From the IMG/VR virus record IMGVR_UViG_2703718857_000001, positions 1-13,485 of that record: 13,485 bases of DNA; one strand, 5' to 3'. A program made the position numbers and the translations under genes. The notes under the pieces were generated by a model that worked only from the letters and a program-made list of their open reading frames with translations, ran no database searches and was not told the origin of the DNA. Position 1 is the first letter of the stretch. The number at the start of each line of letters is the position of its first letter. Source of the stretch: a virus. Its lineage: Duplodnaviria; Heunggongvirae; Uroviricota; Caudoviricetes. Below are positions 1 to 13,485 of the stretch, piece after piece.

Positions 1-318
1 ATGAAAAAGATAGCTGCTATATCATTAATTAGTATTTTTATTATGTCTGGTTGTGCTGTGCATAATGATGAGACAAGTATCGGTAAATTTGGTCTTGCAT
101 ATAAAAGTAATATTCAGCGTAAACTCGATAACCAATACTACACCGAAGCCGAAGCTTCTTTAGCCAGGGGCAGAATATCTGGTGCAGAAAATATAGTAAA
201 AAATGATGCAGCCCATTTCTGTGTTACTCAGGGCAAAAAAATGCAGATAGTTGACCTGAAGACAGAAGGTGCAGGATTACATGGCGTCGCTCGTCTGACA
301 TTCAAATGTGGAGAGTGA
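1..318 (+). CDS. Small lipoprotein, probably host-encoded and flanking the prophage
   Basis: ORF begins at window position 1 with ATG. N-terminal hydrophobic signal peptide ending in a lipobox-like MSGC. Lies left of the candidate att core, so likely host DNA. Function unknown. Confidence 0.6.
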   Translation: MKKIAAISLISIFIMSGCAVHNDETSIGKFGLAYKSNIQRKLDNQYYTEAEASLARGRISGAENIVKNDAAHFCVTQGKKMQIVDLKTEGAGLHGVARLTFKCGE

Positions 319-380
319 GAATATTTTTTGGTAAGCGTCAAATATGCGCGTTCTGGCTGTGCGTAGCCGGAACCTGTGGG

Positions 381-413
381 AGCACGATGCCGATAAGTGA
401 AAGGCATCGTGCT
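381..413. repeat. Perfect 11-bp inverted repeat (AGCACGATGCC / GGCATCGTGCT) with 11-nt loop
   Basis: Read directly from sequence. About 60 nt downstream of the lipoprotein stop. No T-run follows, so it is not a classical intrinsic terminator. Followed by AAGGAGG and a 10-codon mini-ORF (433..465). Confidence 0.5.
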
Positions 414-476
414 ATGAAGGAGGATTCTATCGATGTGGTCAATGGAAGACGGTTACCAGAGATAGGGCTTATGCAT

Positions 477-503
477 AAAAAATAAGCCCGTGTAAGGGAG
501 ATT
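477..503. other. attL: Candidate prophage attL core (P2-type 27-bp att core)
   Basis: Sequence AAAAAATAAGCCCGTGTAAGGGAGATT matches my recollection of the P2 attP/attB core. It sits about 80 bp beyond the 3' end of int, as expected for P2-like phages. Identity is recalled, not searched. Confidence 0.6.
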
Positions 504-582
504 TAGGGTGTCACCAGTAGGGGCTTTCAACGGTACAATGCGGGTTTGAGCGGCATAAATTACCACTGAAAGCCCTTAAACG

Positions 583-1596
583 TTACTCTACTGTGGACAC
601 TGTGTGGACACTCTCGACCTCAGTACCACCTCTTAGCGGATTAAGAGAAATGGCGTCCTGAAGGTACTCTGGCGCAAAATGAGCGTAAACCATAGTTTGC
701 TCAATCCGCGTGTGACCTAGTATCCGTTGTAGCGTGATAATACTTCCTCCATTAATCATGAAATGAGTGGCAAAGCTGTGCCTTAGTGCATGTGTAGCTT
801 GCCCCATTGGCAAATCCGGTTTTATTGCTTTCATTGTACGTCTGAAGCGAGGGTAATCAGCATCAGGGAATAAAAAACCTCGTTTGTTATCCGCGATCAT
901 TTTGGCAACAGCCTCTGAGATCGGGACGGTGCGTGGTTTGTTTGTTTTCGTTTTAACAAACGTGACGCGGTTATGGATGATATTTTCTGCTTTCAAACGA
1001 GCTGCTTCTCCCCAACGTGCTCCAGTACTCAGGCAAAGAATCGCAATCTTTTTGTTGTCGCCGTCAAGAGCAGCAAGCAGTAAGGCAATTTCTTCCTGCG
1101 TGAGATAGCCTGTGTCTGGTTTTTCCTCCTTAAGCCTTTTTGTCCCTCTGATAGGGTGCTCACCAAAGAATAACTCCGCTTCAATCAGGGCTGTAAACAT
1201 GCCGCTAATACATGTTAAATCACGATTGATACTCGAAGGTTTAATACCCTGACTTCTTCGGGTGGCGCAGTACTGGCTGATAAGCGATTTCGTAATTTGA
1301 AATGCGCATGGGTCATTCGTTATTTTTGTGAAGATTTCAATTTTCCCAAGATTAGATTTCCCATGCTCTTCGTGTTTACCCTTTAAATCCCACCAGATCT
1401 GTGTCAGCTCCGACAGACGTCGCTTGTCTGTTGGTTTTGATAGCCATTCTTTATTGTGGTGGTTGTACAACGTGTATTTCTCGAAAGCGACAGCTTCGCT
1501 TTTCTTATCAAACTTCCTACGGATGCGTTTTCCATTACGTCCAGTAGGGCGGATGTCCACTTCATATCGACCATCATCGAGTTTTTTGATTGCCAT
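583..1596 (-). CDS. int: Tyrosine recombinase / phage integrase (P2 Int-like, 337 aa)
   Basis: 337-aa ORF. Tyrosine recombinase box II HxLRHSFATH and catalytic Tyr context MVYAHF. N-terminus MAIKKLDDGRYEVDIRP is P2-Int-like. RBS GGAGGG upstream of ATG on minus strand. Position at the prophage end next to the att core. Confidence 0.93.
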   Translation of the reverse strand: MAIKKLDDGRYEVDIRPTGRNGKRIRRKFDKKSEAVAFEKYTLYNHHNKEWLSKPTDKRRLSELTQIWWDLKGKHEEHGKSNLGKIEIFTKITNDPCAFQITKSLISQYCATRRSQGIKPSSINRDLTCISGMFTALIEAELFFGEHPIRGTKRLKEEKPDTGYLTQEEIALLLAALDGDNKKIAILCLSTGARWGEAARLKAENIIHNRVTFVKTKTNKPRTVPISEAVAKMIADNKRGFLFPDADYPRFRRTMKAIKPDLPMGQATHALRHSFATHFMINGGSIITLQRILGHTRIEQTMVYAHFAPEYLQDAISLNPLRGGTEVESVHTVSTVE

Positions 1597-1650
1597 CAGA
1601 AAACCCTCCGAGTGGTGTGTTTTTTTGCGACTACTAATCGCTTTTTTCGT

Positions 1651-1671
1651 GGTGGCTGAAATTTAGCCACC
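1651..1671. repeat. Perfect 7-bp inverted repeat GGTGGCT-N7-AGCCACC between C and int
   Basis: Read directly. Lies in the C-int intergenic region (1597..1711). No T-run follows on the minus strand, so it is not a terminator. Candidate protein-binding or RNA structure. Confidence 0.4.
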
Positions 1672-1711
1672 AATAGTAGGCACTTGTGATGAATATATTC
1701 ACGATGAATTG

Positions 1712-2011
1712 TTAACCAGTCTTTTGACCGGAGTGGGGCGACGTTGTTTCGTTTTGCCCAAAGTGTGCGAGAGCGGGCGCAATTTGCCCGGACTCAGGAG
1801 CGATCTGATTGGTCATGAACCATAAAGTGTATTTGGTGAATTGTGGGGTCTGCAGGATGTTCATCATGACATCTGTTGGAGGTGTTGAACGACCACTTTC
1901 ATAGTAACTCAGCGTGCCATACGGAACCCCTGTTAAATCAGCAAGTTGTTGTCTGCTCAAATACTCTGATTTTCGCATTAAGACTATCTTCTCGCTTATC
2001 GTGTTTGACAT
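1712..2011 (-). CDS. C: Immunity repressor (P2 C-like, 99 aa)
   Basis: 99-aa ORF directly upstream of int and co-oriented with it, divergent from cox. Size and position match P2 C. The sequence looks P2-C-like from memory. Confidence 0.85.
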   Translation of the reverse strand: MSNTISEKIVLMRKSEYLSRQQLADLTGVPYGTLSYYESGRSTPPTDVMMNILQTPQFTKYTLWFMTNQIAPESGQIAPALAHFGQNETTSPHSGQKTG

Positions 2012-2060
2012 GGTGTTTAGATCTCAATAGTATTTAGTTTAGATGTAGATTGTTTAGTGC
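2004..2060 (+). promoter_or_regulatory. Early promoter (Pe-like) with C-repressor operator direct repeats
   Basis: TTGACA at 2004..2009, 18-nt spacer, TAGTAT at 2028..2033, oriented toward cox. Exact 8-bp direct repeat GTTTAGAT at 2015..2022 and 2037..2044 (22 bp apart) flanks the -10. Additional GTAGAT / GTTTAGT copies follow. Confidence 0.55.
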
Positions 2061-2083
2061 TTGGATGTGGGCACTAAAAGGCA

Positions 2084-2089
2084 TTATAA
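2084..2089 (-). promoter_or_regulatory. Candidate -10 (TATAAT on minus strand) of a leftward repressor promoter (Pc-like), convergent with Pe
   Basis: Perfect TATAAT on the minus strand (complement of ATTATA at 2084..2089). The -35 is weak (TTGCGT-like, suboptimal spacing). Placement rests on the P2 face-to-face promoter arrangement. Confidence 0.35.
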
Positions 2090-2125
2090 GACATTAAACG
2101 CAATTCATGAGGGCTAGAGGACGAC

Positions 2126-2401
2126 ATGAGCAAGCAAGTAACACTCATGACTGATGCGATTCCTTATCAGGAGTTCGCAAAACTAATAGGAAAATCGACA
2201 GGAGCGGTTCGTCGGATGATCGATAAAGGAAAGCTGCCTGTAATTGATATGACCGATCCACAATCAGCTTCAGGTCGTGCAGGTGAATATTGGGTATACC
2301 TTCCGGCATGGAATAACGGACTAAAACTGGCTTATGAAAGCCGCCCTAAAGAGATTCGTGACGGCTGGTTGATGTGGTTAGGTCTCGGTGAACCACGTTA
2401 A
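2126..2401 (+). CDS. cox: Excisionase / early-promoter repressor (P2 Cox-like, 91 aa)
   Basis: 91-aa ORF, first gene of the rightward early operon, divergent from C. Size and position match P2 Cox. Confidence 0.85.
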   Translation: MSKQVTLMTDAIPYQEFAKLIGKSTGAVRRMIDKGKLPVIDMTDPQSASGRAGEYWVYLPAWNNGLKLAYESRPKEIRDGWLMWLGLGEPR

Positions 2402-2411
2402 GGAGAACCGT

Positions 2412-2582
2412 ATGAATGAGCCTCGTTGTATTGCTCAGTTACTGCGTAACGAAAGCCCCAGGGCGATTGACTTCACCATCACCCACGGTAAGGGGCGTAA
2501 GGGAATCATTATCCGCACCAAAAAACAGAGTCCGTTAAAAAAGGCTCTGACCTTTCTGAAAAGCCGGAGGGTATGGAAATGA
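2412..2582 (+). CDS. Small hypothetical early protein (P2 orf78-like)
   Basis: RBS AAGGAG at 2400..2405 followed by ATG at 2412. The longer ORF from 2388 overlaps the cox 3' end and lacks an RBS. Basic small protein. Its stop overlaps the start of B. Confidence 0.5.
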   Translation: MNEPRCIAQLLRNESPRAIDFTITHGKGRKGIIIRTKKQSPLKKALTFLKSRRVWK

Positions 2583-3079
2583 CAGTGATGACGCTCAATC
2601 TCGTTGAAAAACAGCCAGCAGCTATGCGCCGGATAATTGGCAAGCATCTTGCCGTCCCTCGCTGGCAGGATACATGTGATTATTATAATCAGATGATGGA
2701 GCGCGAACGGCTAACGGTTTGCTTTCATGCACAGTTAAAACAGCGTCACGCAACGATGCGTTTTGAAGAAATGAACGACGTCGAACGTGAACGGCTGGTT
2801 TGTGCAATTGATGAATTGCGTGGGGCATTCTCAAAACGCCGTCAGGTCGGTGCAAGTGAGTATGCATATATTAGTTTTTTAACAGTCAGCCAGCGACGTA
2901 CTTTATTTATGCACGCACGACTGACAGAAAAAGAATTCAACCAGCCGTACTGGCGAATTAATGAAGAATCATGTTACTGGCGTGATGCTTTATTCCGTGC
3001 ATTACGTGAATTATTCAGTCTGTTTGAGTATGCACCGACAATTCTGACGTCGGTAAAACCAGAGCAATATCTGCATTAA
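2579..3079 (+). CDS. B: Replication protein B (P2 gpB-like, helicase-loader-type function)
   Basis: 166-aa ORF if started at ATG 2579 (GGAGG at 2564..2568); 168 aa from 2573. Position between cox and A matches P2 B. Confidence 0.8.
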   Translation: MTVMTLNLVEKQPAAMRRIIGKHLAVPRWQDTCDYYNQMMERERLTVCFHAQLKQRHATMRFEEMNDVERERLVCAIDELRGAFSKRRQVGASEYAYISFLTVSQRRTLFMHARLTEKEFNQPYWRINEESCYWRDALFRALRELFSLFEYAPTILTSVKPEQYLH

Positions 3080-3142
3080 ATAATTAACCAGAGTTTTTAA
3101 CGCACTTAATCGTGCGGGGCTTCTTTTTGCCTGGAGAAAGTC

Positions 3143-3367
3143 ATGCATACAGTTTCTGAAAATCAGTGCGGTAAATACGCATTACTGCTGCAACAGGCCA
3201 GAACCGAAGCACAGGCCGACGCTGCGACGCGCTTTTCTTCTCATCTTGACGCCATGATTCGCCATATCACAAAGGCGGAGTTATCCCGCGTGGAGATAGT
3301 CGAGCTGCTCAGTCAGGAGTCGGAAAAATTTCACAATATCGGATTGTCTCGCGGGGAGGTGCTTTGA
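3143..3367 (+). CDS. Hypothetical early protein (P2 orf80-like)
   Basis: 74-aa ORF in early operon, start preceded by GGAGAAAG. Stop overlaps the next start (ATGA). Confidence 0.55.
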
Positions 3368-3669
3368 TGTCCTGTTCTCATTCAGTTGTATTACTGAATA
3401 ACGCCTTAAAAATCGCCGTTATGGAAAATGGTGATTTATCTCTTATTCAACTTTGTCTTGATAAAGAAAAACGCGACATAACTGAATCTGTTATCGCGAT
3501 TTATCAGAATGAATTAAACCTCCTGTCTGATGTGGTCAATTTACTTGTTAAACGCGCTGTATTCCACAAGCAAATTTCCTCCGTGGATGAACTGACAAAA
3601 TTAACGACAGAAATCGTCAGCTATTGCGCTGATGAATTTAAGAAACTGAACGACAAAAGGAACTGGTAA
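3364..3669 (+). CDS. Hypothetical early protein (P2 orf81-like)
   Basis: 101-aa ORF, translationally coupled on both sides. AT-richer codon usage than its neighbours. Confidence 0.55.
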
Positions 3670-3893
3670 TGCCGGACAACGTAGATTTCATTCAGGAACA
3701 ACAGGCTGAATTACTGGAGCGCCAGATTAACGCGGCAAGGGTAAAACATTGCGGTGTTTCTGCGCTGGTTTGCGAAGAGTGTGACGTGCCAATACCTGCT
3801 GCCCGTCGTGCGGCTTATCCGTCAGCCACGCGTTGTGTTTCCTGTCAGTCAGTCTTTGAAGCAAAAAACAAACATTACCGGAGAACGGCATGA
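3669..3893 (+). CDS. DksA/TraR-family C4 zinc-finger protein (P2 orf82-like)
   Basis: CxxC-x17-CxxC motif (CEEC...CVSC) typical of DksA/TraR zinc fingers. 74 aa. Coupled to flanking ORFs. Confidence 0.7.
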   Translation: MPDNVDFIQEQQAELLERQINAARVKHCGVSALVCEECDVPIPAARRAAYPSATRCVSCQSVFEAKNKHYRRTA

Positions 3894-4165
3894 GTATTCG
3901 TATTGAAATTGGCGAACGTTATGTCGTTACCAGTGACAGCTTTCAGTTTATTCTCCACGAGAAAAAGAGAGCGGAAAGCGGTAAAAACGCCGGTCAGGAA
4001 TGGCTGTCGGTGGTTGGTTATTACCCGAAATTAAGCCAGCTCGTTTCCGGCATGATGCATCACGATATTCTGACCGGAAGCGCAAAGTCTTTTGCTGATT
4101 TAAACGCGCAGGTTGAGCAACTCAGCAAGCGTTGTTCAGAGGCTTTTGGCTCATATGGCCGTTAA
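3890..4165 (+). CDS. Hypothetical early protein (P2 orf83-like)
   Basis: 91-aa ORF immediately upstream of A, overlapping the A start. Confidence 0.55.
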   Translation: MSIRIEIGERYVVTSDSFQFILHEKKRAESGKNAGQEWLSVVGYYPKLSQLVSGMMHHDILTGSAKSFADLNAQVEQLSKRCSEAFGSYGR

Positions 4166-6278
4166 AGCCTCCGGGCGTTTTGTCCCTCCATCAGCATTTG
4201 CCGCAGGCACCGGTAAGGCGTTTACCGGTGCTTATGCATGGAACGCGCCACGCGAGGCTGTCGGGCGCGAAAGACCCCTTACACGTGACGAGATGCGTCA
4301 GGTGCAAGGTGTTTTATCCACGATTAACCGCCTGCCTTACTTTTTGCGCTCGCTGTTTACTTCACGCTATGACTACATCCGGCGCAATAAAAGCCCGGTG
4401 CACGGGTTTTATTTCCTCACATCCACTTTTCAGCGTCGTTTATGGCCGCGCATTGAGCGCGTGAATCAGCGCCATGAAATGAACACCGACGCGTCGTTGC
4501 TGTTTCTGGCAGAGCGTGACCATTATGCGCGTCTGCCGGGGATGAATGACAAGGAACTGAAAAAGTTTGCCGCCCGTATCTCATCGCAGCTTTTCATGAT
4601 GTATGAGGAACTCTGCGATGCATGGGTTGATGCACATGGCGAGAAAGAATCGCTGTTTACGGATGAGGCTCAGGCGCATCTGTATGGTCATGTTGCTGGC
4701 GCTGCACGAGCTTTCAATATTTCCCCTCTCTACTGGAAAAAATACCGTAAAGGACAGATGACCACGAGGCAGGCATATTCTGCCATTGCCCGTCTGTTTA
4801 ACGATGAGTGGTGGACTCATCAGCTTAAAGGTCAGCGTATGCGCTGGCATGAGGCGTTACTGATTGCTGTCGGGGAGGTGAATAAAGACCGTTCTCCTTA
4901 TGCCAGTAAACATGCCATTCGTGATGTGCGTGCGCGCCGCCAGGCAAATCTGGAATTTCTTAAATCGTGTGACCTTGAAAACAGGGAAACCGGCGAGCGC
5001 ATCGACCTTATCAGTAAGGTGATGGGAAGTATTTCTAATCCTGAAATTCGCCGGATGGAGCTGATGAACACCATTGCCGGTATTGAGCGTTACGCCGCCG
5101 CAGAGGGTGATGTGGGGATGTTTATCACGCTGACCGCGCCGTCAAAGTATCACCCGACACGTCAGGTCGGAAAAGGCGAAAGTAAAACCGTCCAGCTAAA
5201 TCACGGCTGGAACGATGAGGCATTTAATCCAAAGGATGCGCAGCGTTATCTCTGCCGCATCTGGAGCCTGATGCGCACGGCATTCAAGGATAATGATTTA
5301 CAGGTCTACGGTTTGCGTGTCGTCGAGCCACACCACGACGGAACGCCGCACTGGCATATGATGCTTTTTTGTAATCCACGTCAGCGTAACCAGATTATCG
5401 AAACCATGCGTCGCTACGCGCTCAAAGAGGATGGCGACGAAAGAGGAGCCGAGCGAAACCGTTTTCAGGCGAAACACCTTAACCGGGGCGGTGCTGCGGG
5501 GTATATCGCGAAATACATTTCAAAAAATATCGACGGCTATGCACTGGATGGTCAGCTCGATAACGATACCGGCAGACCTCTGAAAGATACTGCCGCGGCT
5601 GTTACTGCATGGGCGTCAACGTGGCGCATCCCGCAATTTAAAACGGTTGGTCTGCCGACAATGGGGGCTTACCGTGAACTACGCAAATTGCCTCGCGGCG
5701 TCAGCATTGCTGATGAGTTTGACGAACGCGTCGAGGCTGCACGCGCTGCCGCAGACAGTGGCGATTTTGCGTTGTATATCAGTGCGCAGGGTGGGGCAAA
5801 TGTTCCGCGCGATTGCCAGACTGTCAGAGTCGCCCGTAGCCCGTCGGATGAAGTTAACGAGTACGAGGAAGAAGTCGAGAGAGTGGTCGGCATTTACGCG
5901 CCGCATCTCGGCGCGCGTCATATTCATATCACCAGAACGACGGACTGGCGCATTGTTCCGAAAGTTCCGGTCGTGGAGCCTTTAACTTTAAAAAGCGGCA
6001 TCGCCGCGCCTCGGAGTCCTGTCAATAACTGTGGAAAGCTCACCGGTGGTGATACTTCGTTACCGGCTCCCACACCTTCTGAGCACGCCGCAGCAGTGCT
6101 TAATCTGGTAGATGACGGTGTTATCGAATGGAATGACCCGGAGGTCTTGAAAGTGCTTAATCTGGCATTGAAAATAGAAGCATCACGTAAATGTACAAAC
6201 AAAGGAGACACACGAGCAGGCATAGTTGGCGAGTCAACCGCGATTTTCAATGTACAGGATGCTGATAATCAACAATGA
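4155..6278 (+). CDS. A: Rolling-circle replication initiator / endonuclease (P2 gpA-like, HUH superfamily)
   Basis: Start likely ATG 4155 (MAVKASGRF...); the track ORF from 4113 begins at a TTG inside orf83. HUH-like motif PHWHMML and twin-tyrosine motif GYIAKYISK, typical of phiX174-A/P2-A type Rep proteins. 707 aa. Confidence 0.9.
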   Translation: MAVKASGRFVPPSAFAAGTGKAFTGAYAWNAPREAVGRERPLTRDEMRQVQGVLSTINRLPYFLRSLFTSRYDYIRRNKSPVHGFYFLTSTFQRRLWPRIERVNQRHEMNTDASLLFLAERDHYARLPGMNDKELKKFAARISSQLFMMYEELCDAWVDAHGEKESLFTDEAQAHLYGHVAGAARAFNISPLYWKKYRKGQMTTRQAYSAIARLFNDEWWTHQLKGQRMRWHEALLIAVGEVNKDRSPYASKHAIRDVRARRQANLEFLKSCDLENRETGERIDLISKVMGSISNPEIRRMELMNTIAGIERYAAAEGDVGMFITLTAPSKYHPTRQVGKGESKTVQLNHGWNDEAFNPKDAQRYLCRIWSLMRTAFKDNDLQVYGLRVVEPHHDGTPHWHMMLFCNPRQRNQIIETMRRYALKEDGDERGAERNRFQAKHLNRGGAAGYIAKYISKNIDGYALDGQLDNDTGRPLKDTAAAVTAWASTWRIPQFKTVGLPTMGAYRELRKLPRGVSIADEFDERVEAARAAADSGDFALYISAQGGANVPRDCQTVRVARSPSDEVNEYEEEVERVVGIYAPHLGARHIHITRTTDWRIVPKVPVVEPLTLKSGIAAPRSPVNNCGKLTGGDTSLPAPTPSEHAAAVLNLVDDGVIEWNDPEVLKVLNLALKIEASRKCTNKGDTRAGIVGESTAIFNVQDADNQQ

Positions 6279-6399
6279 TAGCTATTGTGACTATGCTAAC
6301 CATATGAATCTATTGTGTGATTATGAGTAATGACTTTTTCTAATATTTGATTTTTAATGTAGTAACTTAGCTAATTTTAAAATTTGTAAAAGGATGTTT

Positions 6400-7647
6400 A
6401 TGTCGATTTATCAAGGTGGTAACAAGTTAAATGAGGATGATTTTCGTTCTCACGTTTATTCCTTGTGTCAATTAGATAATGTTGGCGTTCTGTTAGGTGC
6501 TGGTGCTTCTGTCGGTTGTGGTGGGAAAACGATGAAAGATGTATGGAAATCGTTTAAGCAAAACTACCCTGAGCTTTTGGGAGCACTTATTGATAAATAT
6601 CTTCTGGTTTCGCAAATTGATTCTGATAACAATTTGGTCAATGTTGAACTTTTGATAGATGAAGCAACTAAATTTCTTTCTGTAGCTAAAACTAGACGAT
6701 GTGAAGATGAAGAGGAGGAATTCAGGAAGATATTAAGTTCATTATATAAAGAGGTTACGAAGGCTGCATTATTAACAGGAGAACAGTTTAGAGAGAAAAA
6801 TCAGGGTAAAAAAGATGCGTTTAAATATCACAAAGAGTTAATTTCAAAATTAATTTCAAATAGACAGCCCGGTCAGTCGGCTCCGGCAATTTTTACAACA
6901 AATTATGATTTGGCCTTAGAGTGGGCTGCAGAAGATTTAGGAATACAGTTGTTTAATGGTTTTTCTGGGCTACATACACGGCAGTTTTATCCCCAGAATT
7001 TTGATTTGGCTTTCAGAAATGTAAATGCGAAGGGCGAAGCAAGATTCGGACATTATCATGCGTATCTCTATAAATTACATGGCTCACTTACGTGGTATCA
7101 AAATGATAGCTTGACTGTTAACGAAGTTAGTGCATCTCAAGCATATGATGAATATATTAATGACATAATCAATAAAGATGACTTTTATCGCGGTCAACAT
7201 TTGATTTATCCAGGGGCGAATAAATATAGCCATACAATCGGCTTCGTTTATGGAGAGATGTTTAGACGTTTTGGGGAGTTTATTTCGAAGCCTCAAACAG
7301 CGTTGTTCATAAATGGGTTTGGTTTCGGTGATTATCATATAAATAGAATAATATTAGGCGCGTTACTGAATCCATCTTTCCATGTTGTTATATATTATCC
7401 TGAATTGAAAGAAGCAATTACCAAAGTAAGTAAGGGTGGCGGTTCGGAAGCTGAGAAAGCTATTGTTACTTTAAAAAATATGGCTTTCAATCAAGTAACT
7501 GTAGTTGGGGGAGGAAGCAAGGCATATTTTAATAGTTTCGTAGAACATCTACCATACCCTGTGCTCTTTCCACGAGATAATATTGTTGATGAGTTGGTTG
7601 AAGCAATTGCTAATCTTTCTAAAGGAGAAGGTAATGTCCCTTTTTAA
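6400..7647 (+). CDS. SIR2-like (sirtuin-fold) protein, predicted NAD+-consuming effector of a SIR2-HerA-type defense pair
   Basis: Motifs seen: GAGAS (about 6496), TTNYD (about 6894), KLHGS with candidate catalytic His (about 7074), GFGFGD (about 7320). No CxxC zinc module, as in defense-type SIR2 domains. Start 6400 preferred over 6394 on RBS spacing (AAAGGA at 6388..6393). Low GC. Confidence 0.85.
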   Translation: MSIYQGGNKLNEDDFRSHVYSLCQLDNVGVLLGAGASVGCGGKTMKDVWKSFKQNYPELLGALIDKYLLVSQIDSDNNLVNVELLIDEATKFLSVAKTRRCEDEEEEFRKILSSLYKEVTKAALLTGEQFREKNQGKKDAFKYHKELISKLISNRQPGQSAPAIFTTNYDLALEWAAEDLGIQLFNGFSGLHTRQFYPQNFDLAFRNVNAKGEARFGHYHAYLYKLHGSLTWYQNDSLTVNEVSASQAYDEYINDIINKDDFYRGQHLIYPGANKYSHTIGFVYGEMFRRFGEFISKPQTALFINGFGFGDYHINRIILGALLNPSFHVVIYYPELKEAITKVSKGGGSEAEKAIVTLKNMAFNQVTVVGGGSKAYFNSFVEHLPYPVLFPRDNIVDELVEAIANLSKGEGNVPF

Positions 7648-9466
7648 ACTTACTGAAATCTCGGCTATTGGATACGTTGTAGGATTAGAAGGGGAAAGAA
7701 TTAGGATAAACCTGCATGAGGGGTTGCAAGGCAGATTAGCATCGCATAGAAAGGGGGTGAGCTCAGTAACGCAACCAGGAGATCTTATTGGGTTCGATGC
7801 AGGTAATATATTAGTTGTCGCAAGAGTGACAGATATGGCATTTGTTGAAGCGGATAAAGCGCATAAGGCAAATGTAGGCACATCTGATTTAGCTGATATA
7901 CCTCTAAGACAAATTATCGCCTATGCAATTGGCTTTGTGAAAAGGGAGTTAAATGGTTATGTTTTTATATCAGAAGATTGGCGCTTACCTGCATTGGGTT
8001 CTTCTGCTGTTCCTTTGACTTCAGATTTTTTGAACATCATTTATAGTATTGATAAAGAAGAACTCCCAAAAGCGGTTGAATTAGGTGTGGATTCTCGAAC
8101 TAAAACCGTTAAGATATTTGCAAGTGTTGATAAATTATTGTCGCGACACTTAGCCGTTCTTGGTAGTACAGGATATGGTAAATCAAATTTCAATGCTTTG
8201 TTAACGAGGAAGGTTTCTGAAAAATACCCTAACTCAAGAATAGTTATTTTTGACATAAATGGTGAATACGCGCAAGCTTTTACAGGTATTCCAAATGTAA
8301 AGCACACTATTCTAGGGGAATCCCCAAATGTTGATAGTTTGGAAAAAAAGCAGCAAAAGGGTGAGCTATATAGTGAAGAGTATTATTGTTATAAAAAGAT
8401 ACCATATCAGGCATTAGGTTTTGCTGGGTTAATTAAATTATTAAGACCAAGTGATAAAACACAATTGCCCGCATTAAGAAATGCATTAAGTGCAATTAAT
8501 CGGACTCATTTTAAAAGCCGTAATATTTACTTGGAAAAAGATGATGGTGAAACTTTTCTTTTGTATGATGATTGTCGTGACACAAATCAAAGTAAATTGG
8601 CTGAGTGGTTGGATTTATTAAGGCGTAGACGTCTTAAAAGAACGAATGTATGGCCACCGTTTAAAAGTTTAGCGACTTTGGTTGCTGAATTTGGATGTGT
8701 AGCTGCTGACCGTTCTAATGGAAGTAAACGTGACGCGTTTGGTTTTAGTAACGTGTTGCCATTGGTAAAAATCATACAACAACTTGCAGAGGATATAAGA
8801 TTTAAATCTATTGTTAATTTAAATGGAGGGGGTGAGCTAGCAGATGGTGGAACGCATTGGGATAAAGCTATGAGTGATGAAGTTGATTACTTCTTTGGTA
8901 AGGAAAAAGGACAAGAAAATGATTGGAATGTTCATATAGTTAATATGAAAAATTTGGCACAAGATCATGCTCCAATGTTACTTAGTGCATTGTTGGAGAT
9001 GTTTGCTGAGATACTATTTAGACGTGGGCAGGAACGTTCGTATCCTACGGTACTTTTGTTGGAAGAAGCGCATCATTACCTGCGTGACCCTTATGCTGAA
9101 ATTGACTCACAGATTAAAGCATATGAACGACTTGCTAAAGAAGGTAGGAAATTCAAATGCTCTTTAATTGTCAGTACTCAGCGACCCTCAGAGCTTTCTC
9201 CTACTGTTTTGGCAATGTGTTCAAACTGGTTTTCGTTACGTTTGACTAATGAAAGAGATTTACAGGCTCTCAGATATGCAATGGAAAGCGGTAATGAACA
9301 AATCTTAAAACAAATATCAGGTTTACCAAGAGGTGATGCTGTTGCATTTGGTTCTGCATTTAATTTGCCTGTAAGAATTTCAATTAATCAAGCAAGGCCA
9401 GGGCCAAAATCTTCAGATGCTGTTTTTTCTGAAGAATGGGCTAATTGTACAGAATTACGTTGTTAA
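7634..9466 (+). CDS. HerA/FtsK-like P-loop ATPase (DUF87-type), partner of the SIR2-like protein
   Basis: Walker A GSTGYGKS (about 8162..8185). Walker B hhhhEEAH as VLLLEEAHH (about 9058..9084). STQRPSEL sensor-like motif. Start ATG 7634 has strong RBS AAGGAG at 7622..7627 and overlaps the SIR2 stop (7645..7647). 610 aa. Low GC. Confidence 0.85.
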   Translation: MSLFKLTEISAIGYVVGLEGERIRINLHEGLQGRLASHRKGVSSVTQPGDLIGFDAGNILVVARVTDMAFVEADKAHKANVGTSDLADIPLRQIIAYAIGFVKRELNGYVFISEDWRLPALGSSAVPLTSDFLNIIYSIDKEELPKAVELGVDSRTKTVKIFASVDKLLSRHLAVLGSTGYGKSNFNALLTRKVSEKYPNSRIVIFDINGEYAQAFTGIPNVKHTILGESPNVDSLEKKQQKGELYSEEYYCYKKIPYQALGFAGLIKLLRPSDKTQLPALRNALSAINRTHFKSRNIYLEKDDGETFLLYDDCRDTNQSKLAEWLDLLRRRRLKRTNVWPPFKSLATLVAEFGCVAADRSNGSKRDAFGFSNVLPLVKIIQQLAEDIRFKSIVNLNGGGELADGGTHWDKAMSDEVDYFFGKEKGQENDWNVHIVNMKNLAQDHAPMLLSALLEMFAEILFRRGQERSYPTVLLLEEAHHYLRDPYAEIDSQIKAYERLAKEGRKFKCSLIVSTQRPSELSPTVLAMCSNWFSLRLTNERDLQALRYAMESGNEQILKQISGLPRGDAVAFGSAFNLPVRISINQARPGPKSSDAVFSEEWANCTELRC

Positions 9467-9623
9467 TTACCTGATGTACATGGCTAGTGCAAGTTGGTAG
9501 CGCATGTCTATATGCATTTATTTGCATGTGTTTTATTGAGTGAGCGCACAAGCTTGATGACCCGACAGGTATGTATTTAGACTGAATTTACACCTGCATT
9601 AAAACCGCCCCACGAAGCGGGCG

Positions 9624-9642
9624 GGCGAGGCGGGGAAAGCAC
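9624..9642. other. cos: cos cohesive-end sequence (P2-type 19-nt)
   Basis: GGCGAGGCGGGGAAAGCAC matches my recollection of the P2 cohesive end. It lies in the expected position between the cargo slot and Q, within a GC-rich region with short direct repeats (GCGGTGGTG at 9652 and 9748). Confidence 0.65.
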
Positions 9643-9784
9643 TGCGCGCTGGCGGTGGTGCTGATTTTATTTTTTCAGCGTCTGAGCGCGTCGTGGCGGC
9701 GTTTAGATTTTGCGCCGGGGCGTTGCTGTGTCTGCGGGCTGTTTTGTGCGGTGGTGAGCGTGTGAGGGCGTGATGACTGGGTGT

Positions 9785-9806
9785 AAAAAAGCCGCCCGCA
9801 GGCGGC
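9785..9806 (-). terminator. Rho-independent terminator downstream of Q (minus strand)
   Basis: On the minus strand: GCCGCC-TGCG-GGCGGC hairpin followed by TTTTTT, immediately 3' of the Q stop (9812..9814). Confidence 0.7.
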
Positions 9807-9811
9807 GATGT

Positions 9812-10846
9812 TCAGCCGTTGTCAGTGTCCAGTGAGTAGTTTTTAAAGCGGATGACCTCCTGACCGAGCCAGCCGTTTATCTCGCGGATCCTGTCCTGTA
9901 ACGGGATAAGCTCATTGCGGACAAAGACCTTTGCCACTTTCTCAATATCACCCAGCGACCCGACGTTCTCCGGCTTGCCGCCCATCAACTGAAAGGGGAT
10001 GCGGTGCGCGTCCAGCAGGTCAGCGGCGCTGGCTTTTTTGATATTAAAAAAATCGTCCTTCGTTGCCACTTCACTGAGCGGGATAATTTTAATGCCGTCG
10101 GCTTTTCCCTGCGGGGCATAGAGAAACAGATTTTTAAAGTTGTTGCGGCCTTTCGACTTGACCATGTTTTCGCGAAGCATTTCGATATCGTTGCGATCCT
10201 GCACGGCATCGGTAACGTACATGATGTATCCGGCATGAGCGCCATTTTCGTAATACTTGCGGCGGAACAGCGTGGCCGACTCATTCAGCCAGGCAGAGTT
10301 AAGGGCGCTGAGATATTCCGGCAGGCCGTACAGCTCCTGATTAATATCCGGCTCCAGCAGGTGAAACACGGAGCCGGGCGCGAAAGGTGTCGGCTCATGG
10401 AAGGACGGCACCCACCAGTAAACATCCTCTTCCACGCCACGGCGGGTATATTTTGCCGGTGAGGTTTCCAGTCTGATGACCTTACCGGTGGTGCTGTAAC
10501 GCTTTTCCAGAAACGCATTACCGAACACCAGAAAATCCAGCACAAAGCGGCTGAAATCCTGCTGGGAAAGCCACGGATGCGGAATAAACGTTGAAGCCAG
10601 AATATTGCGTTTAACGTAAATCGGCGAGCTGTGATGCACGGCAGCACGCAGGCTTTTTGCCAGACCGGTAAAGCTGACCGGCGGCTCATACCATCTGCCG
10701 TTACTGATGCATTCGACGTAATCCAGAATGTCACGGCGGTCGAGCACCGGCACCGGCTCACCAAAGGTGAATGCCTCCATTTTCGGGGCGCTGGCAGTCA
10801 TTTTTTTTGCCGCAGGTTGCGGTGTTTTCCCTTTTTTCTTGCTCAT
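9812..10846 (-). CDS. Q: Portal protein (P2 gpQ-like, 344 aa)
   Basis: 344-aa ORF adjacent to cos, co-oriented with and coupled to P (ATGA overlap at 10844..10848). Size and position match P2 Q. Confidence 0.9.
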   Translation of the reverse strand: MSKKKGKTPQPAAKKMTASAPKMEAFTFGEPVPVLDRRDILDYVECISNGRWYEPPVSFTGLAKSLRAAVHHSSPIYVKRNILASTFIPHPWLSQQDFSRFVLDFLVFGNAFLEKRYSTTGKVIRLETSPAKYTRRGVEEDVYWWVPSFHEPTPFAPGSVFHLLEPDINQELYGLPEYLSALNSAWLNESATLFRRKYYENGAHAGYIMYVTDAVQDRNDIEMLRENMVKSKGRNNFKNLFLYAPQGKADGIKIIPLSEVATKDDFFNIKKASAADLLDAHRIPFQLMGGKPENVGSLGDIEKVAKVFVRNELIPLQDRIREINGWLGQEVIRFKNYSLDTDNG

Positions 10847-12303
10847 CAGTAAAACTCCAGAATGGTGGATGTCAGCGGGGTGCTGATACCGGCGGTGAGT
10901 GGCTCATTTAACAGGGCGTGCATGGTCGCCCAGGCGAGGTCGGCGTGGCTGGCTTCCTCGCTGCGGCTGGCCTCATAGGTGGCGCTGCGTCCGCTGCTGG
11001 TCATGGTCTTGCGGATAGCCATAAACGAGCTGGTGATGTCGGTGGCGCTGACGTCATATTCCAGACAGCCACGACGGATAACGTCTTTTGCCTTGAGCAC
11101 CATTGCGGTTTTCATTTCCGGTGTGTAGCGGATATCGCGCGCGGCGGGATAGAACGAGCGCACGAGCTGGAACACGCCGACACCGAGGCCGGTGGCATCA
11201 ATACCGATGTATTCGACGTTGTATTTTTCGGTGAGTTTGCGGATGGATTCAGCCTGGGTGGCAAAGTCCATGCCTTTCCACTGGTGACGCTCAAGTATTC
11301 TGAATTTGCCACCGGCCACCACCGGCGGTGCCAGCACCACGCATCCGGCGCTGTCGCCACGGTGTGACGGGTCGTAACCAATCCATACCGGGCGGGAGCC
11401 GAACGGATTGGCGGCAAACGGTGCATAGTCTTCCCATTCTTCCAGCGTGTCGACCATGCAGCGTTGCAGCTCCTCGAACGGGAACACCGATGCCTTGTCG
11501 TCAACAAATTCACACATGAACAGGTTTTTAAAATCGTCGGCGCTGTTTTCGCGTTTGAGCTGCTCAATGTCGAACAGCGTGCAGCCGCCTTTCAGGGCGT
11601 CCTCAATGGTGACAATCTGCCGCCACTGGCCGTCCGCACAGAGAAGCCCACCGGCAAGGGCGTTATGACTGACGTCGATTTCCACACGTTCGGCGGCGCT
11701 GGCGCGTCCCCGGTTAAACAGTTCACCCGACCAGAACGGGTAGGCGTCGTGCGCCAGCGTGGACGGGGTGGAGAAATAGGTCGAGCGCAGGTGGCTCTGT
11801 GAGGCCATACCGGATGCCACCTTACGCAGTACCTGAAAATTCGGGATCCAGAAAATCTCATCGACGTACAGGTCGCCGTTATGGCTCTGTGCGGTGTTGG
11901 AGTTGGTGCCGAGAAAAATCAGTTTTGCGCCGTTATTACCCAGGACAATCGGGTCACCGGTCAGGTCAACGTCAACCAGCCGGGCAAAGGCGATGATGTA
12001 TTCGCGGAACACATACGCCTGCGTTTTACTGGCCGACAGAAAAATCTGGTTATGACCGGTTTTCAGGGCGCGCAGCAGCGCCTCGCGGGAAAAATAAAAC
12101 GTCGCGCCAATCTGGCGGGATTTCAGGATATCGCGGATGCGGTGCTCAAGCCCGGCGCGATAAATGCCACGCTTTACCTTTACCCTGGCCCCGAAAGCGA
12201 ACCCATTCGCGCTGCCGCCGTGAAAAAACTGGAAGCGTATATCACGGCACAGCACCGGCTGGGGCGCGACATCCGACTGTCTGCCATTTATGCCGCTTTG
12301 CAT
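10846..12303 (-). CDS. P: Terminase large (ATPase) subunit, P2 gpP-like; probably 5'-truncated, with the first ~45 codons of this ORF not genuine P sequence
   Basis: Terminase-type deviant Walker A-like motif KSRQIGAT (compare T4 gp17 SRQLGKT, lambda gpA KSARVGYS). 485-aa ORF versus ~590 aa recalled for P2 P. Its 5' end (about 12160..12303) is antisense to a protein-like plus-strand reading frame. Confidence 0.75.
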   Translation of the reverse strand: MQSGINGRQSDVAPQPVLCRDIRFQFFHGGSANGFAFGARVKVKRGIYRAGLEHRIRDILKSRQIGATFYFSREALLRALKTGHNQIFLSASKTQAYVFREYIIAFARLVDVDLTGDPIVLGNNGAKLIFLGTNSNTAQSHNGDLYVDEIFWIPNFQVLRKVASGMASQSHLRSTYFSTPSTLAHDAYPFWSGELFNRGRASAAERVEIDVSHNALAGGLLCADGQWRQIVTIEDALKGGCTLFDIEQLKRENSADDFKNLFMCEFVDDKASVFPFEELQRCMVDTLEEWEDYAPFAANPFGSRPVWIGYDPSHRGDSAGCVVLAPPVVAGGKFRILERHQWKGMDFATQAESIRKLTEKYNVEYIGIDATGLGVGVFQLVRSFYPAARDIRYTPEMKTAMVLKAKDVIRRGCLEYDVSATDITSSFMAIRKTMTSSGRSATYEASRSEEASHADLAWATMHALLNEPLTAGISTPLTSTILEFY

Positions 12304-12357
12304 GTGGAAGGCGTGCAGCGTGTCGAACTGGCTGCACCGCTGGCCGCTCTTATGTAG
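12181..12357 (+). pseudogene. 3' fragment of a phage structural gene (baseplate J-like C-terminus suspected), lacking its 5' part
   Basis: Protein-like frame ...YPGPESEPIRAAAVKKLEAYITAQHRLGRDIRLSAIYAALHVEGVQRVELAAPLAALM*. It has no own start or RBS, and upstream in frame it runs into the antisense of P. Family assignment from memory only. Confidence 0.4.
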
Positions 12358-12359
12358 AC

Positions 12360-12503
12360 CAGAGTAAAAACGAATATCACATCAGCCTGACGGGCGGTAC
12401 TGCGCCGGGGACACAACTTGATCGCCAGTTACAGGATGCGCTCGAAAAATACGAGCGGGATAAACGTGCGCGTGCCCGTGCCAGCATGATGCATGACGGT
12501 TAA
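12360..12503 (+). pseudogene. 3' fragment of the gene upstream of U (tape-measure T C-terminus suspected), in a different frame from the preceding fragment
   Basis: Protein-like frame QSKNEYHISLTGGTAPGTQLDRQLQDALEKYERDKRARARASMMHDG*, ending 15 nt before the U start with AAGGAGG in between. Upstream in this frame is not protein-like. Confidence 0.35.
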
Positions 12504-12517
12504 GGAGGTGACGAAAA

Positions 12518-12997
12518 ATGATGCTCGCGTTAGGTATGTTTGTTTTTATGCGCCAGACGCTGCCACACCAGACCATGCAGCGTGAATCAGATTATCGCTG
12601 GCCGTCAAATTCCCGTATCGGTAAACGGGATGCCTACCAGTTTCTCGGTGTGGGTGAGGAAAACATCACGCTTGCCGGTGTGCTTTATCCCGAACTGACC
12701 GGCGGCAAGCTGACGATGGCCACGCTCAGGCTGATGGCAGAGGAAGGCCGGGCGTGGCCGTTGCTGGATGGCACCGGCATGATTTACGGCATGTATGTCA
12801 TCAGCAGGGTGAGTGAAACAGGGAGTATTTTCTTTGCAGACGGCACACCCCGGAAAATTGATTTTACGCTGTCGCTCACCCGCGTTGATGAATCACTGGC
12901 CGCGCTTTATGGCGATATCGGTAAACAGGCGGAATCGCTCATCGGTAAGGCTGGCAGTATGGCGACTAAATTCACGGATATGACGGGGGCGGGATAA
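12518..12997 (+). CDS. U: Tail protein U (P2 gpU-like, 159 aa)
   Basis: 159-aa ORF with strong RBS AAGGAGG. Stop overlaps the start of the next gene (TAATG). Position upstream of D matches the P2 tail operon. Confidence 0.85.
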   Translation: MMLALGMFVFMRQTLPHQTMQRESDYRWPSNSRIGKRDAYQFLGVGEENITLAGVLYPELTGGKLTMATLRLMAEEGRAWPLLDGTGMIYGMYVISRVSETGSIFFADGTPRKIDFTLSLTRVDESLAALYGDIGKQAESLIGKAGSMATKFTDMTGAG

Positions 12998-13485
12998 TGC
13001 TGGATGCACTGACATTTGATGCAGGCAGTACGCTGACGCCGGATTACATGCTGATGCTCGACAGCAGGGATATTACCGGCAATATCAGCGACCGTCTGAT
13101 GAGCATGACCCTGACGGATAACCGGGGCTTTGAGGCTGACCAGCTTGATATTGAACTGAACGATGCCGACGGGCAGGTCGGGCTGCCGGTTCGTGGCGCT
13201 GTCCTGACGGTGTATATCGGCTGGAAAGGTTTTGCCCTGGTATGCAAAGGGAAATTTACCGTTGATGAGGTTGAACACCGGGGCGCACCGGATGTGGTCA
13301 CCATCCGCGCCCGGAGTGCAGATTTTCGCGGGACGCTCAATTCCCGCCGTGAAGGCTCCTGGCATGACACCACGCTCGGTGCGATTGTTGAGGCGATAGC
13401 CTCCCGTAACAGGCTGGAAGCCAGTGTCGCTCCGTCACTGGCCGGAATTAAAATCCCGCACATCGACCAGTCGCAGGAGTCTGAT
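12997..13485 (+). CDS. D: Tail protein D (P2 gpD-like), 5' portion only; continues beyond window end
   Basis: Open frame from ATG 12997 to the window edge (163 codons, no stop). N-terminus MLDALTFDAGSTL... is P2-D-like from memory. Follows U as in P2. Confidence 0.85.
   Translation, partial: MLDALTFDAGSTLTPDYMLMLDSRDITGNISDRLMSMTLTDNRGFEADQLDIELNDADGQVGLPVRGAVLTVYIGWKGFALVCKGKFTVDEVEHRGAPDVVTIRARSADFRGTLNSRREGSWHDTTLGAIVEAIASRNRLEASVAPSLAGIKIPHIDQSQESD

Follow-up and report, generated by a model that had tools for sequence, protein, structure and literature searches.

When a P2-type prophage has lost its particle genes but kept its means of integration, replication and packaging, is it a passenger of helper phages, a defence island domesticated by its host, or an ordinary prophage in decay? 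This question is raised by the window, the whole 13,485-nt stretch of DNA analyzed here (IMG/VR record IMGVR_UViG_2703718857_000001). A sequence-only reading had described it as a defective prophage in which a defence cassette is surrounded by cos and by genes for integration, immunity and replication, and collinearity with P2 confirmed that description. Window 476-6150 aligned with P2 (NC_001895) 24355-30029 in a gapless 5,675-nt blastn match of 97.85% identity, and outside the SIR2-HerA cargo all of the DNA was collinear with P2 at 96-98%, with no extra ORFs. Judged by its sequence, window 477-13485 is a P2-type (Peduovirus) prophage occupying the yegR/trhP attachment site of E. coli, a member of Peduovirus by descent, yet defective. 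In our assessment it probably arose recently, as a private product of decay, from an ordinary 33-kb P2-type prophage and has the role of an immunity-plus-defence island. The element marks a commonplace step in the decay of prophages and is of no new kind.

The left end of the window runs from host DNA into the attachment site:

1-318, plus strand: yegR, host gene forming the left chromosomal flank, outside the element (yegR annotation in collinear loci; Pfam YegR)
477-503: attL core AAAAAATAAGCCCGTGTAAGGGAGATT, 27/27 against the P2 attP core; the 27/28-nt core is exact at 477-504
520-593: Cox-binding region of attL, 74/74 against the annotated P2 sites
591-617: Int P' arm site of attL, 26/27 against the annotated P2 site

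The 27-mer of the attL core was also present at both attL and attR of a full-length relative (L023). Neither a tRNA scan nor an Rfam gathering scan of the window returned a hit, so the attachment site is not a tRNA within the window. At the other end, the window stops inside gene D, and the rest of D, ogr and attR lie beyond it. In relatives past the window end, D (387 aa) is followed by ogr, the attR core and trhP; where the right end is identical, the attR core lies 1,077 nt past the point matching the window end. From these relatives, an element length of ~14.1 kb is predicted.

The early region carries integration, immunity and replication functions:

583-1596, minus strand: int, tyrosine integrase, 337 aa, intact, no stops (Pfam Int_N and Phage_integrase; 2 aa different from P2 Int)
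1712-2011, minus strand: C, immunity repressor, 99 aa (100% identical to P2 C; Pfam HTH_3)
2001-2125: divergent promoters Pe/Pc with operators O1 (2015-2022) and O2 (2037-2044), 125/125 against P2 25880-26004
2126-2401, plus strand: cox, 91 aa, excision directionality factor and Pc repressor (100% identical to P2 Cox; Pfam Phage_Cox, E = 5.5e-48)
2412-2582, plus strand: orf78, protein 100% identical to P2 Orf78
2579-3079, plus strand: B, 2 residues different from P2
3143-3367, 3367-3669, 3669-3893 and 3890-4165, plus strand: orf80, orf81, orf82 and orf83, in frame and uninterrupted
4155-6278, plus strand: A, rolling-circle replication initiator, 707 aa (Pfam Phage_GPA, E = 5.8e-124)

Comparison with P2 showed none of the early ORFs to be interrupted. 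Across the orf78-orf83 block (2412-4165), each protein differed from its P2 counterpart by 0-8 aa, and relatives gave the same gene calls. A is 707 aa long here against 761 in P2, with 10 differences within the first 665 aa; its catalytic Tyr motif (Y450/Y454) is kept, and the ori nick region at ~6013 matched P2 at 60/61 positions. The P2 homology of A stops at 6150, and its last 42 codons are replaced by cargo-side sequence. Full-length-size relatives have the same replaced C-terminus, and the exact 707-aa protein was found in the 100 collection blocks listed, full-length-size prophages among them. No isolated phage in the phage collection carried this C-terminus type. These matches bore out the earlier proposals that the element keeps int with a candidate att core, a C/cox switch with intact-looking operators, and the B and A replication genes, with int and A undisrupted.

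The defence cargo spans 6151-9594, between the end of the A homology and cosR, and has a GC content of 36% against 48-56% in its flanks:

6400-7647, plus strand: SIR2 NADase of SIR2-HerA (Nezha), 415/415 residues identical to PDB 8J4U chain A (PADLOC SIR2, E = 9.9e-190)
7634-9466, plus strand: HerA ATPase/helicase of SIR2-HerA, 610/610 residues identical to PDB 8J4U chain M (PADLOC HerA, E = 1.9e-277)

The HerA ORF overlaps the SIR2 stop by 14 nt. P2-type prophages carry variable cargo between gene A and cos/portal gene Q, an interval known as the gpA-gpQ hotspot (Rousset et al. 2022, PMC9122126), and from its position the cargo here is placed in this known defence hotspot. Phage resistance has been shown for identical SIR2-HerA proteins, and the Nezha mechanism invoked below comes from the same source (PMC13434337). 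The cargo was absent from the isolated phages of the phage collection and from the plasmids searched, and a promoter scan around it performed no better than on shuffled sequence.

Beyond the cargo lie cos and what survives of the late genes:

9595-9700: cos region, with the 19-nt cohesive end GGCGAGGCGGGGAAAGCAC exact at 9624-9642; 9595-9642 corresponds to P2 33546-33593, and 9624 onwards to P2 1 onwards
9812-10846, minus strand: Q, portal protein, 344 aa, intact (Pfam Phage_portal; 5 aa different from P2 Q)
10846-12162, minus strand: P', 3' part of the large terminase gene, C-terminal 438 codons; P2 homology ends at P2 2537
12159-12346, plus strand: J', 188-nt internal and 3' fragment of baseplate gene J (P2 11939-12126 at 95.7%; 100% against J of relative L018)
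12334-12504, plus strand: T', 3' end of the tape-measure gene (P2 22127-22297)
12518-12997, plus strand: U, tail protein, 159 aa, intact (Pfam Phage_P2_GpU, E = 4.3e-44; intact prophages at this locus encode an identical protein)
12997-13485, plus strand: D, first 163 codons, with no stop before the window ends (2 aa different from P2 D)

The site described earlier as cos-like thus holds the exact P2 cohesive end, and Q adjoins it as in the P2 layout. Q is without its promoter, pP having been deleted, and a tQ-like terminator stands at 9791-9806. P2 P has 590 aa, of which P' lacks the N-terminal 152; its start codon and the pP/pO control region are gone as well, and among its Pfam domains, Terminase_6N and 6C are found and Terminase_5 is missing. 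U is likewise without its pF promoter, which is deleted. The late genes that survive, Q, P', U and D, are all without their promoters. The claim that the morphogenesis genes had been lost stood in part: two deletions removed ~19 kb of late genes, but total loss was ruled out by the intact Q and U, the open D and the remaining fragments of P, J and T.

Deletion 1 (~9.4 kb; P2 2538-11938 absent) runs from the start of P, with pP/pO, through most of J, and deletion 2 (~9.5 kb; P2 12127-22126 absent) begins at the end of J and extends across most of T. Their joins are as follows:

12158-12162: junction 1, P'/J', with a GATA microhomology (three-way alignment with both P2 flanks)
12334-12346: junction 2, J'/T', with an imperfect 13-nt repeat, GCACC(G)CTGGCCG (overlapping BLAST pieces and alignment)

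The ~19 kb of late genes would thereby have been lost through two illegitimate, microhomology-mediated events. The set of late operons (P-Q, O-S, V-G and FI-D) is incomplete, and, as read from its gene content, the element has no means of producing capsids, tails, small terminase or lysis proteins.

Window 478-9696 had 0 mismatches against two full-length-size prophages (L016 and L020), and the right end of the window (12334-13485) had 0 mismatches against intact tail regions. This absence of mismatches indicates that the deletions are very recent. They are too recent for neutral decay, so the intact int, C, cox, B and A are uninformative on selection. Reading the intact early ORFs as a sign of selection was accordingly ruled out by the zero divergence from full-length-size prophages. 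A junction-spanning megablast against 5,426 complete E. coli genomes found 0 places with at least 80% coverage for either junction, and the exact junction 33-mers occurred 0 times in GTDB representatives and 0 times in JGI metagenomes. Look-ups of the exact P' protein with three possible starts found no second copy, its 388-aa form occurring only in other, unrelated disrupted P genes. Searches with the exact SIR2, A and U proteins turned up relatives and no second copy of this truncation. The truncated element was not found at this locus in related strains, the junctions occurring in 0/5,426 complete E. coli genomes and the deletions of the relatives differing.

The relatives place the window in a series. 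The full-length prophage EC01 (NZ_CM169500.1 1742385-1775463) is collinear with window 1-12162 at 99.2%, with att cores at 477 and 33529. Among 16 cargo-bearing complete genomes checked, the prophage was of full-length size in 13 and truncated in 3, each differently. The closest relatives (99.8-99.9% identical) each carry a different deletion, and further, independently arisen deletions of this prophage at this locus were found in O18, L003, L010, L012, L014, L018, L021 and CP66-6. The parental type would appear to be viable as a phage, since it occurs at full-length size across many strain backgrounds and also at a second att site. The locus yields a decay series from the 33-kb full-length size through the 14-kb element of the window, ~12.5 kb in L010 and ~5 kb, essentially the cargo alone, in L012 to 0.6 kb in the K-12 remnant PR-X.

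Three other explanations were weighed against recent decay. The first reading of the locus had raised a helper-dependent element, and in its fullest form this would be a mini-P2 satellite that excises by Int/Cox, replicates by A/B/ori, is packaged from cos by a P2-like helper and so spreads SIR2-HerA. The parts present in the window (attL, int, cox, B, A/ori and an exact cos) are all intact, and two 14.1-kb copies would measure 28 kb, or 84% of the P2 length. There is precedent in Sp13, a P2-like prophage of O157 Sakai that is excised, amplified and inefficiently packaged (PMC2669165), and in sid-deleted P4 phasmids, apparently packaged as dimers in P2-size capsids at low titre (bioRxiv 10.64898/2026.03.30.715334). 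Cox of P2 Hy dis, a heteroimmune relative, can also act on P2 in trans (PMC3936717). However, genes for exploiting a helper are lacking, all DNA outside the cargo being collinear P2 DNA, and the junctions occur in no other genome searched, which leaves no sign of past movement as a unit. The related truncated copies all differ, with cos/Q gone in L018 and int through A gone in L012; attR of the present element lies outside the window, and the recency of the deletions accounts for its intact early genes. A cell carrying a P2 remnant with C is immune to helpers of P2 immunity, and P2 Int depends on transcription from Pc, a promoter that Cox represses. The P2 C repressor is not known to be SOS-inducible. 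Given these three properties, induction and excision should be rare. We therefore consider a mini-P2 satellite improbable, and the helper-dependent element is unsupported as originally stated, its junctions being unique and its parts list the one that any young P2 late-region deletion would leave. More doubtful still is that the ~14-kb remnant works as a mini-P2, derepressed by a heteroimmune Cox or by P4 epsilon, self-replicating and packaged as a dimer by a helper. Occasional helper-assisted transfer, by analogy with Sp13 and the P4 phasmids, is mechanistically possible.

Domestication by the host, in which late genes were lost and the rest was kept by selection for defence and P2 immunity, seems unlikely, though somewhat less so than a satellite. 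Its cargo is a proven anti-phage system identical to a solved complex, and across 20 complete genomes the cargo is more conserved (99.5-100%) than the backbone (97.5-99.2%). L012 keeps essentially A'-SIR2-HerA-cos-Q' alone between yegR and trhP, and the same possibility has been raised for defective P2 elements (PMC13586616). Yet no clade-level persistence is seen among the 5,426 complete genomes, and zero substitutions over 9.2 kb relative to intact prophages leave nothing on which selection could be measured. The examples were found through look-ups of the cargo or the A protein, and the retention of cargo is thus partly an ascertainment effect. Moreover, an 11-nt deletion shortens SIR2 to 389 aa in L022, the rest of whose prophage has full-length size over the extent of the locus, and the K-12 remnant at the same site has wholly lost its cargo region. 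As put forward earlier, domestication is unsupported, with the junctions in 0/5,426 genomes and no divergence from intact prophages. That both junctions are assembly misjoins within a normal full-length prophage is hardly credible. They are unique to the window, as an artefact would be, but the joins are collinear and in the same orientation, their 4-nt and 13-nt microhomologies, far shorter than what would confuse an assembler, are of the sort seen in genuine illegitimate deletions, and many independent deletions of like kind occur at the same locus in finished genomes.

Recent decay of an ordinary prophage leads to the following picture of how the element may work today. In the repressed state, Pc would drive C and confer P2-type superinfection immunity, while SIR2-HerA would be expressed from its own AT-rich upstream region. 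Infections by other phages would be aborted by SIR2-HerA through NAD+ depletion, together with nuclease/helicase activity once ATP drops. The element would thus behave as an immobile immunity-plus-defence island, and int, cox, B, A, ori and cos would be intact merely through the youth of the deletions. If attR is intact, derepression could excise and replicate a ~14.1-kb circle, and a co-infecting P2-like phage might occasionally package this circle as a dimer, a by-product and no evolved lifestyle.

Herein, the window is a textbook example and no discovery: a P2 prophage very soon after the loss of its virion genes, with a fully characterised defence system in a known hotspot. Its modest value is that of one point in a single-locus decay series, which illustrates how phage-borne defence genes can become chromosomal islands. 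If helper phages do move such young remnants, defence genes would have one more way to spread, and satellites a possible way to originate. A working mini-P2, if real, would capture, in nature, a satellite-like hitchhiker with defence genes that had formed directly from its helper phage through deletion.

Among known systems, both cargo proteins are identical in sequence to SIR2-HerA/Nezha (PDB 8J4U, 8SU9 and others), and the context, a truncated prophage, differs. Satellite P4 (11.6 kb) has a cos core in common with P2, encodes an integrase and replication functions of its own, bears a defence hotspot adjoining cos and is packaged by P2. In contrast to its dedicated alpha, delta, epsilon, sid and psu genes and its architecture conserved across genomes, the window consists of plain P2 DNA without these genes or equivalents, and its reduced architecture does not recur. 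Sp13 of E. coli O157:H7 Sakai (PMC2669165) is likewise P2-like, is without most morphogenesis genes and was shown to be excised, amplified and packaged with the help of other prophages; a P4 epsilon-like gene is thought to explain its induction, whereas the window, known from sequence alone, has no such gene. Defective P2 prophages with conserved defence genes have already been described as 'uncharacteristic genomic regions' (NAR 2026, PMC13586616); there, replication functions are often pseudogenised, whereas in the window they are intact and the loss is confined to late genes. EC01-like full-length P2-type prophages share the att site, gene order and cargo (100% over 3,316 nt) of the window, which differs from them in missing 9.4 kb and 9.5 kb of late genes, making particles impossible. 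The defective P2-related prophage of E. coli B offers a further comparison. PR-X of E. coli K-12 (ogrK and yegZ, a D fragment) occupies the same site, from yegR to cyaR/trhP; at 0.63 kb, and without int, immunity, replication, cos or any cargo, it stands further along the same path of decay.

Alignment of the window to P2 (NC_001895) with blastn yielded five collinear pieces, all on the same strand. P2 DNA begins at window 476, and the sole non-P2 stretch, 6151–9594, has a GC content of 36%, compared with 48% in the early region and 56% in the late region. The window contained no tRNA genes in a tRNA scan and no Rfam families in an Rfam scan. The features are listed below.

Layout of the window, with the corresponding P2 coordinates in brackets.
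1–318: host gene yegR, at the window start
476–6150 (P2 24355–30029): attP core, int, C, cox, orf78, B, orf80–83 and A; 97.85% identity, gapless
6400–7647: SIR2, overlapping HerA
7634–9466: HerA, overlapping SIR2
9595–9642 (P2 33546–33593): right side of cos
9624–12162 (P2 1–2537): cos, Q and the 3′ part of P
12159–12346 (P2 11939–12126): piece of J
12334–13485 (P2 22127–23279): end of T, U and start of D

The integration and immunity region is nearly indistinguishable in sequence from that of P2. The 27-nt att core (AAAAAATAAGCCCGTGTAAGGGAGATT) matches the P2 attP core exactly at window 477–503. Identity to P2 reaches 74/74 in the Cox-binding sites, 26/27 in the Int P′ arm and 125/125 in the Pe/Pc/O1/O2 region (window 2001–2125). 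C, Cox and Orf78 show no differences from the P2 proteins, Int and B each differ at 2 residues, and no early ORF is interrupted. The A protein comprises 707 aa versus 761 in P2, with 10 substitutions within residues 1–665 and the catalytic Tyr motif retained; the ori nick region (~6013) is 60/61 identical. The final 42 codons of A fall past the P2 homology break at 6150, which places the left edge of the hotspot inside A. Cargo exchange replaced these codons (window 6150–6278), and this explains why the NCBI pipeline tags A as “incomplete, missing C-terminus” in these prophages. The same 707-aa A is present in many full-length-size prophages. It may be that P2 gpA does not need its C-terminal ~96 residues, or else that the annotation is mistaken.

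The cargo occupies the interval from gpA to cos/gpQ, a defence hotspot of P2 (Rousset et al. 2022, PMC9122126). Where P2 carries tin and old, the window carries SIR2-HerA. SIR2 is identical to PDB 8J4U chain A (415/415) and HerA to chain M (610/610), the structure of the E. coli SIR2-HerA “Nezha” complex, an abortive-infection system (PMC13434337). Of the 5,426 complete E. coli genomes, 20 carry the cargo, with 99.5–100% identity in all, and it was not found in the isolated phages of the phage collection or in plasmid records.

To place the deletions, the coordinates of E. coli EC01 (L023), the closest full-length relative among those examined, were used. The window lacks EC01 12163–21563 and about 21752–31300. 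Junction 1, between the P and J fragments, lies at a GATA microhomology, and junction 2, between the J and T fragments, at an imperfect 13-nt repeat; the 33-mers across the two junctions are CTCAAGCCCGGCGCGATAAATGCCACGCTTTAC and GGCTGCACCGCTGGCCGCTCTTATGTAGACCAG. Microhomology at both junctions is typical of illegitimate deletion and speaks against an assembly error. A 158-aa chimeric ORF (window 11881–12357, plus strand) runs antisense to the P fragment into that of J and ends just beyond junction 2; although a gene caller could annotate it, this ORF is almost certainly spurious. EC01 has two perfect copies of the 27-nt core, one at 477 and one at 33529, which bound a prophage of 33.05 kb. 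Window 12334–13485 is identical, except for one gap at the junction, to eight same-locus prophages, which continue with D (387 aa), ogr and an attR core starting 1,077 nt past the position equivalent to the window end. The window stops inside D. Because the attR core sits 1,077 nt beyond the matching point in these eight relatives, an element of ~14.1 kb is predicted by extrapolation from their matching right ends.

The sequence-only reading had described a defective prophage that lost its morphogenesis genes but kept integration, immunity, replication and cos around a defence cassette. This observation was borne out, with the corrections that Q and U are intact and that D is open up to the window end. 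At window 9624–9642, the 19-nt cohesive end matches that of P2 exactly. Deletion has taken the start codon and first 152 codons of P together with the pP/pO control region, and the F operon no longer has its pF promoter. Since these promoters, as annotated in P2, are gone, the remaining late genes are probably silent. About 105–110 nt at cos (window 9591–9700) match 41 plasmid records, the majority of them large conjugative plasmids from Escherichia and Klebsiella, at 95–98% or lower. Plasmid-borne cos sequences of P2 or P4 type are the probable source of these matches.

Truncation of this prophage is a recurrent event. Among 16 examined cargo-carrying genomes, the prophage is of full-length size in 13, and O18, FG92-1 and CP66-6 are truncated, each in its own way. 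Further independent variants were taken from exact-protein look-ups: related loci with a deletion joining fragments of P and D (L010), a deletion within P (L014), a deletion from cos/Q to V (L018) and a rearrangement (L021). Locus L012 (9120–14320, GCA_946408745.2) reads yegR, half attL core, A fragment (205 aa), SIR2, HerA, cos, Q fragment, attR core and trhP. There, Q is fused to the end of ogr, the attR core is intact, and int, C, cox, B and most of A are missing, making it the closest to a cargo-only end state among the loci seen. K-12 MG1655 retains at the same site a 0.63-kb remnant, PR-X, consisting of ogrK and a D fragment. Together, the independent variants and PR-X show a full decay series at this locus. 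Preservation of the cargo is not universal. In L022 (12246–13469, GCA_030004665.1), a counter-example, an 11-nt deletion shortens SIR2 to 389 aa in a prophage that, over the extent of the locus, otherwise looks full-length in size.

Several other arrangements were observed. The annotated PR-X (L034 2615–3312; K-12 MG1655 2167114–2167811) begins within the cyaR sRNA gene, 18 nt short of its end, so the P2 att core at this site overlaps the cyaR 3′ end. In some strains, yegR and attL are set apart by an additional 170 nt of AT-rich sequence that the window (position 323) lacks, at L002 6323–6493 and L020 5999–6169 in two related loci. In L011 (GCA_964056545.1) and E. coli A17 (NZ_CP028757.1), the B-A-SIR2-HerA-late module lies behind a different int/C/cox module and also at another attachment site, with a pflB flank in A17. 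Their homology to the window begins right after cox (break at window 2412), as if the integration and immunity block had been exchanged as a module. The prophage of E. coli N58 (NZ_CM165884.1, about 1754699–1790397) is flanked by yegR on the left and pflB/focA on the right, suggesting that a chromosomal rearrangement joined two P2-like prophages lying at different att sites.

Window 478–9696 has 0 mismatches to L016 and L020, two related prophages that are full-length in size over the extent of their loci, and the right end has 0 mismatches to intact prophages. Differences from L016 and L020 are confined to the host flank and the Q/P stretch. In the latter (window 10700–12162), mismatches to the closest relatives are clustered, at 24–38 per kb-bin in some loci, and P2-like prophages that carry other cargos, such as retron or AAA+/S8 peptidase, share exactly the last 388 aa of P. 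This pattern indicates a recombinational mosaic. The identical prophage adjoins diverged yegR flanks, which suggests recent movement of the parental phage between strains. As no substitution has accumulated since the common ancestor, the intact state of int, C, cox, B and A is what would be expected by default and is uninformative on selection for mobility. Searches of the 5,426 complete E. coli genomes, GTDB representatives and JGI metagenomes found neither junction; thus, there is no sign of the horizontal spread expected of a satellite or the clade-level retention expected of domestication. The interpretation given in the sequence-only reading is only partly supported: the element is a defective P2-type prophage, but neither of the proposed meanings, helper-mobilisable or host-domesticated, is supported as stated.

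Helper-assisted transfer of the remnant would draw on cis and trans parts that, as far as visible in the window, are all intact. However, gpA acts in cis and the terminase uses monomeric closed circles, both of which count against mobilisation. The remnant’s repressor is also P2’s own and non-SOS-inducible, so helpers of P2 immunity should be excluded, and int lies within the Pc operon, repressed by Cox (PMC3936717). In favour of mobilisation, Cox of P2 Hy dis, unlike WPhi Cox, can act on P2 in trans (PMC3936717). Also in its favour, Sp13 of O157 Sakai, a defective P2-like prophage without most morphogenesis genes, was excised, amplified and weakly packaged (PMC2669165), and P4 phasmids deleted for sid seem to be taken up as dimers by P2-size capsids, at low titre (bioRxiv 10.64898/2026.03.30.715334). 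Some helper-assisted transfer detectable in the laboratory is conceivable but rather unlikely, and as a maintained lifestyle it is highly improbable. The element is a defective P2 prophage with a conserved defence cargo, a kind that has already been described (PMC13586616).
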